From the NCBI RefSeq assembly GCF_001457615.1, contig NZ_LN831024.1:2400001-2432000 (forward strand): a stretch of 32,000 nucleotides of DNA. Direction: 5' to 3'. Below, in pieces: positions 9,343-19,526 of this stretch. Each line of letters opens with the position of its first letter. The stretch's first letter is position 1. Position numbers and translations under genes: made by a program. The notes below the pieces were generated by a model. It had not been told where the DNA came from, ran no database searches, and saw only the letters and a list, made by a program, of their open reading frames with translations. This DNA is from Pseudomonas aeruginosa. GTDB taxonomy: Bacteria; Pseudomonadota; Gammaproteobacteria; Pseudomonadales; Pseudomonadaceae.

Positions 9343-10695
9343 TCACAACCCCCTCTGCCGCGCCACCCCCACCATCTCCCGCTGCTCCTCCTCGCCAATC
9401 TCCTTCAACGCCACTTCCCCCACCCCCAGCGCGCGTTCCACGCTGAGTTCGCCGCCCTGGGCGGCGAGCAGGGCCTGGAGGCGTTGGAATTCGCCGCACC
9501 AGAGGGTTTCGATGTCGCGGTCGCGCTGGTTGTCGCGGTTGGCGTTGAGGGCGACGGCGCGCAGTTGCAGGCGGCCGTTGTCGGCCTTGCCGCCGACTTC
9601 CAGGCCGTAGCCGGGGGTGGCGGGTTTGCGCAGGACGACCCTGCCGGTCTGCGCCCAGGCGGTGGCCATGCCTTCGCGGACTTCGTAGCCGAGGCTGGCG
9701 AGGCCCTGGAGCACGGCCTGGCGGCGGGCGAGGGCGGCCTGTTGCTGGAGGTGGGCGGTGAGGATGGCGTTGCATCGCTCGGTGAGTTCGGCGAGTTGCT
9801 GCGGATCGCTGTCGGGCTGGCAGGCGGCGGCGCGCTGGAGCAGTTCGGCGTGTTCGGCGGCGCCCAGGGCGGCGACTTCGCTGGCGAGGTCTTGCAGGTG
9901 TTCCAGGCGCTGGCGTTGCTGCTGGTGTTCGCGGGCGGCCTGGGCGAGGTCGAGGACCAGGCTGTCGAGCAGCAGGTTGCGGCGCTCCGGGCGCTGTTCG
10001 GCTTCGGCGCGTGCCAGTCGCTCGAGGAACGCTTGGGCGCTGGCCTCGCCTTGCAGCAGTTGCAGTTCGGCGATGTGCCGGTCGATGCGCGCCAGGCGCT
10101 GTTCGTGCGGGGCGTCCTGTTGCTGGCGGGCGCGCCACTGTTCCAGGGACATGGGCGTTTCGTCGGTCTTCAGGCGTTGGGCGAGTTCGCGCTGGGCTTC
10201 GCTGAGGCGTTCTTCGGCGGGGGCGCTGGCGAGGGCGGCGAAGCCCTGGGCGAGCAGGGCTTCCGCGTCGTCGCGGAGGACGCCGTCGGCCAGCGTATGC
10301 AGGGTTTGCCGGAGTGCCGCGCTGGCGGCATCGGGCCTGGCGTCGAGGGCCTGGAGCAGGGCGCTGGCGTTTTCCTGGAGGCGGCGGTGTTGCTGGCGCG
10401 TTTCCGCGGCCTGGCGGATGGCGCGCTCTTCGCGTTCGGCGAGGTCGCGCTTGAGGAATTCGCTTTCGATCTTCACCTGTAGTTGCACGTCCAGCCAGCG
10501 TTCCTGTTCGAGCAGGGCGTGCAGGCTGGCGCGGCGGGCGTGGGCGGCGGCGCGCTCGGCGTCGCTGAGCTGGGCGAGCCGGCTGGCCTGGTTTTCCCAG
10601 CGCGCGAGGGCCTTGTCCAGGCGTTGCAGGTCGCGCTCGCAGGTGGCGATGGCTTCTTCCCGGGTGACGATTCGTACGACTTTCGGTCCGCTCAT
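9343..10695 (-). CDS. Coiled-coil protein (450 aa) with small C-terminal globular domain; fourth gene of the operon
   Basis: ATG 10695 overlaps the upstream stop as ATGA (10692-10695). The sequence MSGPKVVRIVTREEAIATCERDLQRLDKALARWENQ... is followed by ~330 aa of A/Q/E/L/R-rich helical repeats. It ends in a mixed alpha/beta-looking segment (GYEVREGMATAWAQTGRVVLRKPATPGYGLEVGG...LWCGEFQRL). Only the last 450 codons of the listed 1212-aa ORF are taken as coding. Confidence 0.7.
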   Translation of the reverse strand: MSGPKVVRIVTREEAIATCERDLQRLDKALARWENQASRLAQLSDAERAAAHARRASLHALLEQERWLDVQLQVKIESEFLKRDLAEREERAIRQAAETRQQHRRLQENASALLQALDARPDAASAALRQTLHTLADGVLRDDAEALLAQGFAALASAPAEERLSEAQRELAQRLKTDETPMSLEQWRARQQQDAPHEQRLARIDRHIAELQLLQGEASAQAFLERLARAEAEQRPERRNLLLDSLVLDLAQAAREHQQQRQRLEHLQDLASEVAALGAAEHAELLQRAAACQPDSDPQQLAELTERCNAILTAHLQQQAALARRQAVLQGLASLGYEVREGMATAWAQTGRVVLRKPATPGYGLEVGGKADNGRLQLRAVALNANRDNQRDRDIETLWCGEFQRLQALLAAQGGELSVERALGVGEVALKEIGEEEQREMVGVARQRGL

Positions 10696-17642: not shown

Positions 17643-19526
17643 TCAGCGGCGTTCCAGGGTCAGGCCGTCGGCGTCCAGGGCGCTGATCAGGAAGCGCTCG
17701 CCCGGCTGCGCGTCCTGGTCGAACAGTGCCCGCGACAACGGGTTGAGCAGGCGCGCTTCGAGCTGGTTGCGGATGCCGCGGCCGCCGTTGGACAGGTCGC
17801 CCAGGCAGAGGTCGTGCAGAGCCTGGCGCGGCGCCTCGGCCAGTTCGATGACGAGGCGCTGCTCGCGGAGGTCGGCGAAGGTGCCGTCGACCATCTGGGT
17901 GAAGATCTGCTCGGCGACGTCGGCGCGGATGAAGTCGAAGACGATAATGTTCTCGCCGATCCGGTTGAGGATTTCCGGGCGGTTGAGAACCAGCTTGAAG
18001 TAGCGCTCGATCTCGCCGTGGACCTTGCCCTGCACCGCCTCGAAGGGCTCGCCGGGGAGCACGTTGGCGACCCGTTCGCCGTTTTCCCCCTGGCGGTAGA
18101 TGCCCAGGTTCGAGGTGAACACGATCAGCGCCTCGGAGAAGTACACGCGATCGCCGCGCCCGGAGGTGAGCACGCCGTCGTCGAGGATCTGCAGGAACTT
18201 GTCGAGGATCCGGGGGTGGGCTTTCTCGATCTCGTCGAAGAGCACCACGCTGAAGGGTTTTTCGCGGATCGCGTTGGTCAGTTCGCCGCCGACGTCGTAG
18301 CCGACGTAGCCGGGCGGCGCGCCGATCAGGCGCTGGTCGGCATGCTCGGCGCTGAACTCGGACATGTCGAAGCGGATGTAGGCGCTCTCGTCGCCGAACA
18401 GCAGGCTGGTGACGGTCTTCGCCAGCTCGGTCTTGCCGACCCCGGTGGGCCCGGCGAGGAAGGCCACGCCGCGCGGGCGGTTGCCCTTGCGGCTGGCGCC
18501 GACCCCGGTCATCGCGCGCTTGACGATGTCCAGCATGTGGGTCACCGCGTGCTGCTGGCCCTTGACCCGGCGGCGGACGATCTCGTCGGCCTGGCGGATG
18601 CGCTGGCGGTCGATCTTCAGCCAGGGGTCTTCGGTGACGCCGACCTTGTAGCGCCGCACGGCGTCGGCGATGCGTTCCATGGCCAGGCCTTCCACGCGCG
18701 CCAACTGGACGATGGCGTTGAGATCGAGGAGTAGCAGGCCTTCGGTGTTCTCGACGAAGGTTGCGGCGGCCTGTTGCAGGGCCTCCTCGGCGACGCCCGC
18801 GCCGCCTAGCCCGCGGAGCAGCGCCGGGGCCAGGGCCCGGCGCGCCGGCTGGTCGGGCTTCGACACCGGGATATGGCGCAGGCGCGGGTTGTCCACCAGC
18901 AGCCAGTCGGGCAGGTCGCCTTCCTTTTCCACCACCCACAGCACGCTGTTGAAGAACGGTTTGCGCTGTTCCCCGGCGGGACGGCTGCGGGCCTGGTGGG
19001 AGAGCACCAGGGCCTGGGTGAACAACTGATGCTCGGCGGCGCTCAGGGCGTCGTTGCGCACCGCCAGGCGCGAGGCGAAGTCGACGATCAGGGCGATCGG
19101 CTCGCCGCTACGGTTGACCAGGCGTTGCAGGGTCGCGCCGAGCAGGTCGATGCCGGCCGGCGCGGCGCCGTCCACCGGGGTCAGGCCGAGGTCGAGAAGC
19201 ACCTGCGGAGTGGCCCCCGCCTCGCTGCCCGGCCGGCCGAGCACGCGGAACCCGGCCAGCGGATCCCAGGCCAGCACCTGGGCGTAGCCGGCGTCCAGCA
19301 GGGCGTCGCAGAGGGTCTGGTTGAAGCTCTGCGCGGTGACCGTACCCGGCACCACTTCGCAGGCTTGCAGGTCGCGGATGTTCCCGGAGAGGACGAATTG
19401 ACTCTTGAGGGGCAGGAAGCGCAGGAGGTCGCGCAACCAGCGTGGCTTTTCGAACAGTGCAGTCCCTGGCATCGGTAGTCGCTCACAGCGTGTGTCGTGG
19501 CCACAGCATATTGCCCCGAGGGCCAT
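17643..19526 (-). CDS. AAA+ ATPase with Clp/Hsp100 D2-type module and a P-loop-less N-terminal half
   Basis: The C-terminal half has GPTGVGKTELAK (Walker A, nt ~18429-18452), VVLFDEIEKAHP (Walker B), IGAPPGYVGY, LIVFTSNLG and a D2-small-like GGRGIRNQLE..LLNPLS. The N-terminal ~330 aa has no GxxxxGK[ST]. The start is uncertain: ATG 19526 (GGAG only 2 nt upstream) or ATG 19472 (MPGTALFEKPRW). Confidence 0.85.
   Translation of the reverse strand: MALGAICCGHDTRCERLPMPGTALFEKPRWLRDLLRFLPLKSQFVLSGNIRDLQACEVVPGTVTAQSFNQTLCDALLDAGYAQVLAWDPLAGFRVLGRPGSEAGATPQVLLDLGLTPVDGAAPAGIDLLGATLQRLVNRSGEPIALIVDFASRLAVRNDALSAAEHQLFTQALVLSHQARSRPAGEQRKPFFNSVLWVVEKEGDLPDWLLVDNPRLRHIPVSKPDQPARRALAPALLRGLGGAGVAEEALQQAAATFVENTEGLLLLDLNAIVQLARVEGLAMERIADAVRRYKVGVTEDPWLKIDRQRIRQADEIVRRRVKGQQHAVTHMLDIVKRAMTGVGASRKGNRPRGVAFLAGPTGVGKTELAKTVTSLLFGDESAYIRFDMSEFSAEHADQRLIGAPPGYVGYDVGGELTNAIREKPFSVVLFDEIEKAHPRILDKFLQILDDGVLTSGRGDRVYFSEALIVFTSNLGIYRQGENGERVANVLPGEPFEAVQGKVHGEIERYFKLVLNRPEILNRIGENIIVFDFIRADVAEQIFTQMVDGTFADLREQRLVIELAEAPRQALHDLCLGDLSNGGRGIRNQLEARLLNPLSRALFDQDAQPGERFLISALDADGLTLERR

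Follow-up and report, generated by a model that had tools for sequence, protein, structure and literature searches.

A four-gene unfoldase, radical-SAM and helicase-nuclease operon at the edge of a Pseudomonas aeruginosa defence hotspot: a candidate conflict system

Introduction

In the anti-phage protein Hhe a single polypeptide unites DUF4011, an SF1 helicase and a Vsr-like nuclease and acts as a stand-alone system, and PDC-S37 and ProA are likewise single-gene systems. We analyse here an operon in which the same domain combination is found in one polypeptide (Pfam) that is accompanied by three other proteins. It lies in a 32,000 nt stretch of Pseudomonas aeruginosa DNA (NZ_LN831024.1, positions 2,400,001-2,432,000; called the window below) that at the protein level matches P. 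aeruginosa best, with 99% identity. Four minus-strand open reading frames (ORFs) fill window positions 9343-19526, and we name them in order of transcription A (an AAA+ protein), B (a radical S-adenosylmethionine (SAM) enzyme), C (a giant protein) and D (the last gene); together they are called the cassette. From sequence comparisons we tentatively read this cassette as an Hhe-like helicase-nuclease conflict system, directed against mobile elements or phages and gated by an unfoldase and an activase-like radical SAM enzyme, and we judge the chance that this is correct to be somewhat short of even.

The locus itself has been seen before. Johnson et al. 2023 (PMC10250203) mapped core defence hotspot 1 (cDHS1) of P. 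aeruginosa and used the DUF4011 protein as a marker of its boundary; comparison of the flank genes reported there with our operon shows that they are the same locus, the core right flank of cDHS1, which is present in every isolate. In that paper the genes serve as boundary markers only, with no functional or comparative analysis, no mention of the AAA+ partner and no description of the distribution outside the species. Later papers that cite cDHS1 add nothing on the cassette genes, and the operon is published only as the cDHS1 core right flank. Literature searches with ProA, PDC-S37, DUF4011 plus radical SAM, NrdG plus ClpB, PA2725-PA2728 and cDHS1 found no functional study, and two Aravind-lab surveys mention neither the operon nor its architecture.

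Results

The giant helicase-nuclease and the search for a named system

The C protein has a string of recognizable domains (Table 1). In its two N-terminal zinc ribbons residues C5, C8, C19, C28, C68, H72, C81 and C84 are invariant. The helical region and DUF4011 that precede the helicase (aa ~380-831) contain many invariant Trp and Arg residues, and the part between aa 380 and 740 has no family match in Pfam. The SF1B helicase has a long helical insert (aa ~1040-1600), and its motifs GPPGTGKS, DEASQ, GDEKQMPP, QGDERD and VAVTRAR are intact and invariant. In the nuclease that follows, D2009, E2025, D2027 and H2031 are conserved.

The kinase-like domain of C, which an initial annotation of this DNA had listed as a kinase, has lost its catalytic residues. 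An alignment of 26 orthologues shows neither a Gly-rich loop nor the beta-3 Lys (AVLTLY); 25 of the 26 read GFG, NFG or GFQ where DFG is expected, the HRD Asp is variable (HGN, HCD, HRN) and the catalytic-loop Asn is missing in most; APE and DWWSLG are retained and invariant, and the PDB profile search aligns C with kinases from the C-helix onward only. Because the Gly-rich loop, the beta-3 Lys, the HRD Asp, the DFG Asp and the catalytic Asn are absent or variable, the residues that define a Hanks-type Ser/Thr kinase are not there, and by this alignment the domain is a pseudokinase.

The giant gene is frameshifted in PAO1, where it was annotated as PA2727 plus PA2728 (PMC3697988, PMC4918941). 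It is split into three ORFs in a Serratia locus. The remaining PAO1 cassette genes we take to be PA2725, PA2726 and PA2729.

Does a named system correspond to this gene set? PADLOC, NCBIfam, PHROGs and Pfam gave partial, sub-threshold matches only and none of their named systems equals the whole cassette, in agreement with the initial annotation, which could match the combination to no named defence system. PADLOC placed PDC-S37 (E 1e-145), Hhe (E 2e-61) and MkoA over the helicase-nuclease part of C only, mad6 and PD-T4-6 over the kinase fold of C, and it matched the ATPase core of A to DolB and PDC-M37B. The PDC-S37 alignment joins profile positions 289-1351 of 1550 to C residues 946-2092 of 2098. 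In NCBIfam, ProA (NF058533) scores 517 bits against a cut-off of 1500 over profile positions 643-1719 of 1903, and Hhe (NF042953) scores 320 bits against a cut-off of 2000 over C residues 1239-2073 only. The proposal that every part belongs to a family recruited into defence is supported by the defence relatives of the C helicase-nuclease, the kinase fold and the AAA+ part of A. B has no match to PADLOC or any other defence model.

Four genes that are inherited together

The three gene junctions, read directly from the sequence, are very tight: the A stop codon (TGA, 17645-17643) is one base away from the B start codon (ATG, 17641-17639; TGAgATG), the B stop codon (17005-17003) is followed after 14 nt by the C ATG at 16988, and the C stop and D start codons overlap as ATGA (10695-10692). 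These are exactly the junctions of the four nearly gapless minus-strand genes in the initial annotation.

An exact-pattern scan of 185,579 species genomes with a D profile found D in 198 of them (~0.1%), a count that is a lower bound. From these 198 species 80 loci were kept and traced by tBLASTn and ORF calling. A, B, C and D have the same order, strand and sizes in all 73 of the 73 loci with enough upstream DNA, the 4 nt C-D overlap is retained in 69 of 79, and the A-B gap is between -4 and +8 nt in 73 of 74. The hosts span five phyla and include Pseudomonas, Moraxellaceae, Xanthomonadales, Burkholderiales, Legionella, Orbaceae, Hyphomicrobium, Bradyrhizobiaceae, Acidobacteria (Pyrinomonadaceae) and Chlamydiae; matches to the A N-terminal domain add fragments from Planctomycetes, Verrucomicrobia and Flavobacteriaceae. 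Identities to the window proteins are 59-88% for A, 48-79% for B, 41-81% for C and 31-67% for D, so D is the fastest-evolving member despite an invariant N-terminus. The flanks of 28 diverse loci contain no recurrent fifth gene. Because order, strand, sizes and overlapping junctions are kept in 73 of 73 loci in five phyla, A-B-C-D is, on these sequence comparisons, one obligate, co-inherited and translationally coupled unit, and the question raised by the initial annotation, whether the four genes travel together, is answered in the affirmative far outside this strain.

Mobility and genomic context

Outside P. aeruginosa the distribution is patchy (the 198 species above), and some surroundings are those of mobile DNA: the cassette lies directly after an integrase and AlpA in Kangiella and adjoins a MobA/MobL relaxase in Bosea, relatives of D are found on 11 plasmids, five of them conjugative, and split or decayed copies are frequent (Serratia, Kangiella, Bosea, Rhizobium, Roseomonas). 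In some genomes defence genes are found nearby (Wadjet, a mad3/mad8-like (MADS-like) gene, a NERD plus UvrD gene and restriction-modification genes). In five loci of P. corrugata, P. brassicacearum, P. mediterranea and P. fluorescens the cassettes are 90-94% identical while both flanks are unrelated, and the homologous stretch begins ~100 nt before gene A and ends with the D stop codon (about 1100-11400 in each locus). This cassette-only homology indicates that the 10.25 kb unit moves, or is swapped, as one piece. In two PA7-like / P. paraeruginosa loci (L083, L003) the cassette is 98-99% identical to window positions 9297-19564 and homology ends exactly at its edges; the upstream flank of both carries a Dyp peroxidase gene and is not the usual P. 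aeruginosa flank. Two Stenotrophomonas loci (L029 and L055) have syntenic flanks on both sides that are 85-91% similar, with a cassette that is only 78-80% similar, and because the flanks are more similar than the cassette this suggests either allelic replacement or faster divergence at a fixed site.

Three candidate observations of this kind were rejected. The first plasmid DNA match to the cassette proved to be an unrelated ClpG/K-like ATPase. Related genomes at five loci differ by 1-4 kb inserts directly downstream of D, as at cDHS1, and the region after D was considered as a defence hotspot in other genera, but these inserts, although variable, encode transport and metabolic functions and not defence. 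What looked like a D head on its own, on the R. leguminosarum plasmid pSK02 (L099, 12719-13375), is a truncated remnant (the C-terminal half); it lies near a multiubiquitin/ThiF/DUF6527 (Bil-like) cluster, a thermonuclease, a SRAP peptidase and an NTase-HEPN gene.

The tandem AAA+ protein A

The A reading frame as called begins at 19526, the start given in the initial annotation, but the true start is probably ATG 19472 (M19, giving 609 aa), because alignments of A orthologues begin at residues 19-27, other species encode 606-612 aa, and a conserved upstream GCAATAT box (below) would otherwise fall within the first annotated codons.

A had been described as Clp-like, and this is true of its second tier, D2, in which Walker A (GPTGVGKT), Walker B (VVLFDEIE), the pore loop (GYVG) and the Arg finger (in PEILNR) are near-invariant in 26 orthologues from five phyla. 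It is not true of its first tier, D1, which is degenerate. An AlphaFold2 (AF2) model that covers the N-terminal domain only (~280 residues; pLDDT 91.8, pTM 0.89) gave Foldseek matches to p97 D1, FtsH and Rubisco activase with probability 1.0 (617 matches at E<=0.001), so the fold is that of an AAA+ domain. In the alignment, however, Walker A is absent (FVLSGNIRD is in its place) and Walker B is degenerate (D-F), and D1 is for this reason probably not an ATPase. The alignment of 26 orthologues also contains no IGF/IGL ClpP-docking loop and no M-domain. The NCBIfam ClpB model gives 253 bits against a cut-off of 1232, below its equivalog threshold, and the two active tiers, N- and M-domains and score of a ClpB/Hsp104 disaggregase are not those of A. 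The DolB match covers the ATPase core of A only (E 3.7e-17) and PADLOC finds no DolA, so this is not a Dodola pair. In Kangiella (L095), Bosea (L096) and Serratia (L097) the N-domain and D2 of A are encoded by separate ORFs; these splits, like that of the Serratia giant, may be pseudogenes, assembly errors or functional.

The radical SAM protein B

B is most similar to the activases of glycyl-radical enzymes. Its best NCBIfam match is NrdG (E 5e-21, 75.2 bits against a cut-off of 126.1), PflA follows (52 against 231.75), and it lies below every curated NCBIfam cut-off. Against PDB profiles it matches the activase PFL-AE (3c8f, E 6e-13), with an alignment that spans the GPGxR loop, CX3CX2C and GGE; the QueE-like signal is much weaker (E 2.5e-4 in NCBIfam; PDB 5tgs, E 9e-5). 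In 26 orthologues C28, C32, C35, G71-G72-E73 and R137-G-S-D-N-Q are invariant, so both glycyl-radical activase motifs (CX3CX2C and GGE) are present, and a C-terminal extension (aa 150-212) is conserved. In PFL-AE the GPGxR loop contacts the substrate peptide (3CB8 structure). A search of A, C and D for a Gly_radical domain found none even at E<=10 (Pfam), and there is no glycyl-radical enzyme among the 25 most frequent flank families of the cassette loci. Judged from sequence, B is a glycyl-radical-activase-like enzyme with no glycyl-radical partner in the operon or the frequent flanks.

The D protein

D belongs to an unnamed family of 838 clusters at 50% identity, nearly all ~450 aa long. The initial annotation called it a coiled-coil protein; its AF2 model (pLDDT 88.5, pTM 0.76) does have long helices, but it is not simply a coiled coil, and model and alignment together give an N-terminal strand (with the invariant sequence MSGPKVVRxxTREE), a long helical middle of variable sequence and, conserved at the C-terminus, an alpha/beta head (aa ~335-435) in which G336, Y337, G364, Q377, E396 and C400 are invariant. 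From the secondary-structure list of the model, the N-terminal strand is predicted to join the sheet of the C-terminal head. Pfam, PADLOC, NCBIfam and PHROGs gave no match to D, nor did the PDB by sequence, and Foldseek found none in PDB or BFVD. Two identities considered for it were rejected: a glycyl-radical domain (no Gly_radical match at E<=10, and its GYxV loop does not fit the PROSITE-type pattern) and a HORMA domain (no Foldseek match to one). D alleles within P. aeruginosa (P0019, P0034, P0048 and others) carry in-frame insertions and deletions in the helical middle, namely duplications of ARPDA and of RDSQ and the loss of 23 residues (aa 154-176); some of these changes are in low-confidence parts of the model.

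Edges of the cassette and the neighbouring island

Homology with other P. aeruginosa strains stops 46-65 nt past the D stop codon (blastn), and the variable hotspot cDHS1 starts at this 3' boundary. On the other side homology with PA7-like strains begins at 19560-19564 (blastn), and an alignment of ten Pseudomonas cassettes shows the GCAATAT box conserved at 19508-19514, ~35 nt upstream of ATG 19472. A promoter scan of the locus found no consensus sigma-70 site. The terminator that had been proposed after D is represented by a short stem followed by T6 at 9197-9202 (the weak hairpin plus T6 is 9197-9224), but it is not supported: a terminator scan of the minus strand found none, the folding of the 3' region is no more stable than that of its shuffles (z -0.17), and the hairpin and T6 lie beyond 9278-9297, where homology with other strains stops. 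Rfam had no family at its gathering score anywhere in the 32,000 nt window.

Upstream of the operon a 378 aa minus-strand ORF (19603-20739) has no family match and is probably an over-extended call; in other strains the region is annotated as genes of 179 aa, 92 aa and a GFA-domain gene, and nothing from it is conserved beside the cassette outside P. aeruginosa.

The island on the D side (window 1-9297) has a GC content of 55-61%, against ~70% in the operon. All of the genes attributed to it earlier (nuclease, double methyltransferase, insertion sequence (IS) and SymE) are present (Table 1). The nuclease-methyltransferase pair looks like an unclassified restriction-modification-like system, and the Rfam scan of the window detected no SymR-like antisense RNA beside SymE.

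Table 1. Coordinates of the cassette features and of the neighbouring cDHS1 island in the window
Feature	Position	Strand	Description and basis
Gene A, tandem AAA+	17643..19526	-	ORF as called 627 aa; Pfam AAA_2 E 1.9e-44, ClpB_D2-small
A N-terminal tier D1	18627..19472	-	AAA+ fold, motifs degenerate; AF2, Foldseek, alignment
A tier D2	17643..18626	-	ClpB-D2-type ATPase, motifs intact in alignment
Gene B, small radical SAM, NrdG/PflA type	17003..17641	-	212 aa; Fer4_12 E 1.2e-24
Gene C, giant multidomain	10692..16988	-	2098 aa; Pfam Pkinase, DUF4011, AAA_11, AAA_12, MTES_1575
C aa 1-90, two zinc ribbons	16719..16988	-	CPNC...C...C and C..GH...C..CG; weak Pfam zinc-ribbon matches
C aa ~105-360, protein-kinase fold without catalytic machinery	15909..16676	-	Pfam Pkinase; orthologue alignment
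C aa ~380-831, helical region then DUF4011	14496..15848	-	DUF4011 E 1.8e-08
C aa 946-1916, Upf1/IGHMBP2-like SF1B helicase	11241..14153	-	AAA_11, AAA_12; best PDB match IGHMBP2
C aa 1982-2078, Vsr/DUF559-like restriction endonuclease fold (MTES_1575)	10755..11045	-	Pfam E 2.2e-16
Gene D	9343..10695	-	450 aa; unnamed family; AF2 model, orthologue alignment
Cassette 5' boundary and GCAATAT box	19508..19560	-	blastn edges; alignment of ten Pseudomonas upstream regions
Cassette 3' boundary	9278..9342	-	blastn of loci L083, L087 and L091 against the window
PD-(D/E)XK/DUF2357 nuclease	119-1231		
HTH plus double methyltransferase	1217-5326		1369 aa
ORF	6213-7394		393 aa; weak CoiA_N match
IS3-family element	7523-8760		IS3-type integrase; 99% identical to copy in L083
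SymE	8953-9177		

Discussion

What might such a unit do? Several findings speak for the conflict-system reading: the homology of the C effector part to anti-phage proteins, the strict four-gene unit, the domain and motif states of the four proteins, the accessory behaviour of the cassette outside P. aeruginosa and, within this species, its place beside cDHS1 and the frameshifted giant of PAO1. From the observed domain assignments, motif states and co-occurrence we infer a defence role, an interaction between A and D and a substrate for B, and the mechanism that follows is made of steps each of which we rate much lower than the conflict-system reading itself. C as a whole would be a sensor-effector: its C-terminal two thirds (DUF4011, SF1B helicase and Vsr-like nuclease) would translocate on DNA and cut it, and its zinc ribbons and pseudokinase would form a sensing or regulatory platform that phosphorylates nothing. 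A would be a hexamer that threads protein, with D1 inactive, D2 active and no protease docking; by tugging at D it may turn the effector on or off, in analogy to the remodelling of HORMA by Trip13 in CBASS. Trip13 acts by engaging the N-terminus of its switch protein. D is the best candidate for the A substrate because it is the most variable member and yet has an invariant N-terminal strand, and if the model of D is right this strand could be a handle that completes the C-terminal head.

B may carry out a single radical reaction on A, C or D that licenses or fires the system; a partner protein is the suggested target because the peptide-binding loop of the activases is kept and no glycyl-radical enzyme is present. 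The host genera of the cassette are mostly aerobes, which makes a classical long-lived glycyl-radical cofactor unlikely. A more specific version, which we consider improbable, is that B places a radical on a glycine of a partner (Gly3 in MSGPK of D, or its G336-Y337 loop) as a one-shot oxygen-sensitive switch, acting by cleavage or crosslinking, that together with A arms or fires the helicase-nuclease.

Several facts weigh against the conflict-system reading. Within P. aeruginosa the cassette is not accessory: it is the core flank of cDHS1, not variable and present in every isolate (PMC10250203). A conserved core context with a housekeeping phenotype had been named at the outset as what would speak against a conflict system; the first half of this is the case in P. 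aeruginosa (PMC10250203), but no housekeeping phenotype is known. In other taxa the flank genes are mostly metabolic, the cassette GC content tracks that of its host between 35% and 72% and deviates from it by 1.7 points on average, and the proteins are as conserved as housekeeping chaperones; host-matched GC and high conservation together imply long residence and strong purifying selection, which are unusual for immune genes. The cassette is absent from phage records and IMG/VR. The matches to anti-phage families are limited to the helicase-nuclease part and lie far below the curated cut-offs, and neither B nor D matches any defence model. Finally, the threading of D by A and the protein substrate of B are drawn by analogy.

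Much of this would suit a chromosomal genome-maintenance or repair module, for example one that removes protein-DNA adducts or stalled complexes, in which A strips protein, C processes DNA and B reverses a radical-type lesion or matures a partner. The core status in every P. aeruginosa isolate (PMC10250203), the adaptation of GC to each host, the very high conservation across phyla, the metabolic flanks in most taxa, the absence from phages and the syntenic Stenotrophomonas flanks all favour such a module. We nevertheless regard it as unlikely, though deserving serious consideration: detection in ~0.1% of species genomes is too patchy for housekeeping, the closest relatives are anti-phage proteins, the cassette occurs in integrase and relaxase islands and on plasmids, and frameshifted copies are tolerated in PAO1 and several other genomes (PMC3697988). 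The idea that the four genes are chance neighbours, or no more than a local operon whose members share no function, has a negligible probability, being refuted by their co-occurrence in 73 of 73 loci in five phyla and by the cassette-only homology between related species.

Two other explanations differ from the conflict-system reading mainly in the role given to B. B, perhaps helped by A and D, could mark host DNA so that C restricts unmarked DNA. A Vsr-like nuclease fused to a translocase does recall the logic of Type I/III-like or ISP-like restriction, radical SAM enzymes modify bases in phage thymidine-hypermodification pathways (PMC8989533), and B has a weak QueE-like score (E 2.5e-4; PDB 5tgs, E 9e-5). 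B is, however, much closer to the protein-radical activases (NrdG, 5e-21; PFL-AE, 6e-13) and keeps their peptide-binding GPGxR, it has no evident DNA-binding or base-flipping domain, the cassette contains no transferase or glycosylase gene, and the unfoldase would have no obvious job, all of which makes this restriction-modification-like scheme improbable. Prokaryotic viperins and the Ophion radical SAM protein OpnA (bioRxiv 10.1101/2025.09.30.679545) use radical SAM chemistry in defence, and B, as the only predicted non-ATPase enzyme of the module besides the nuclease, might similarly produce a signal or an altered nucleotide, which would either poison the replication of the invader or activate C, with A and D as chaperone or scaffold. 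This is very improbable in our view, as B does not belong to the viperin family (it has no PADLOC match and its best matches are activases) and the kinase, phosphatase and transferase genes typical of nucleotide-modifying defence systems are not in the cassette.

If the conflict-system reading is correct, an immune system is carried by every P. aeruginosa isolate at the edge of the richest defence hotspot of the species, with a bearing on the prediction of phage-therapy host range and on plasmid uptake, and an unfoldase and a glycyl-radical-activase-like enzyme would be regulators of a helicase-nuclease, a combination found in no named system. Core genes that mark the flanks of hotspots may then be conflict systems themselves, a caution for hotspot mapping. 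Should the radical trigger proposed for B also be true, it would be a protein-radical switch in bacterial immunity and a glycyl-radical activase outside anaerobic metabolism. Whatever its role, an activase with no glycyl-radical enzyme that is strongly selected in aerobes of five phyla would mean a new substrate class for this radical SAM subfamily, and all this concerns an uncharacterised operon within a heavily studied genome.

The individual proteins and the operon as a whole each resemble described systems in part. B resembles NrdG and PflA as a small Fer4_12 radical SAM protein with CX3CX2C, GGE, a GPGxR loop and an RGSxNQ motif, and unlike them it scores below the cut-offs, has an extra conserved C-terminal domain and has no glycyl-radical enzyme in its operon or recurrent in its flanks. 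A shares with ClpB, ClpV and DolB a ClpB-like D2 with the GYVG pore loop and a D2-small domain (PADLOC DolB and PDC-M37B over the ATPase core), but its D1 is degenerate, it lacks an N-domain, M-domain and ClpP loop, and it has no DolA or PDC-M37A partner. MADS (mad1-8) is represented by partial matches within C to mad6 (kinase fold) and mad8 (P-loop), and the operon contains no other mad gene and so is not that gene set. The HORMA-Trip13 pair of type III CBASS offers a mechanistic analogy only, an AAA+ remodeller beside a switch protein and a nuclease effector; D has no sequence or fold kinship with HORMA, A is of the Clp type and not the Trip13 type, and there is no cyclic-nucleotide synthase. 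The nearest likeness is to Hhe, PDC-S37 and ProA, with which C residues ~740-2098 share DUF4011, the Upf1-like SF1B helicase with its long insert and the MTES_1575/Vsr-like nuclease. Unlike these single-gene systems, C has ~740 additional N-terminal residues (zinc ribbons, pseudokinase and helical domain), and in contrast to the stand-alone Hhe it keeps constant company, with the AAA+, radical SAM and D genes beside it in 73 of 73 loci.

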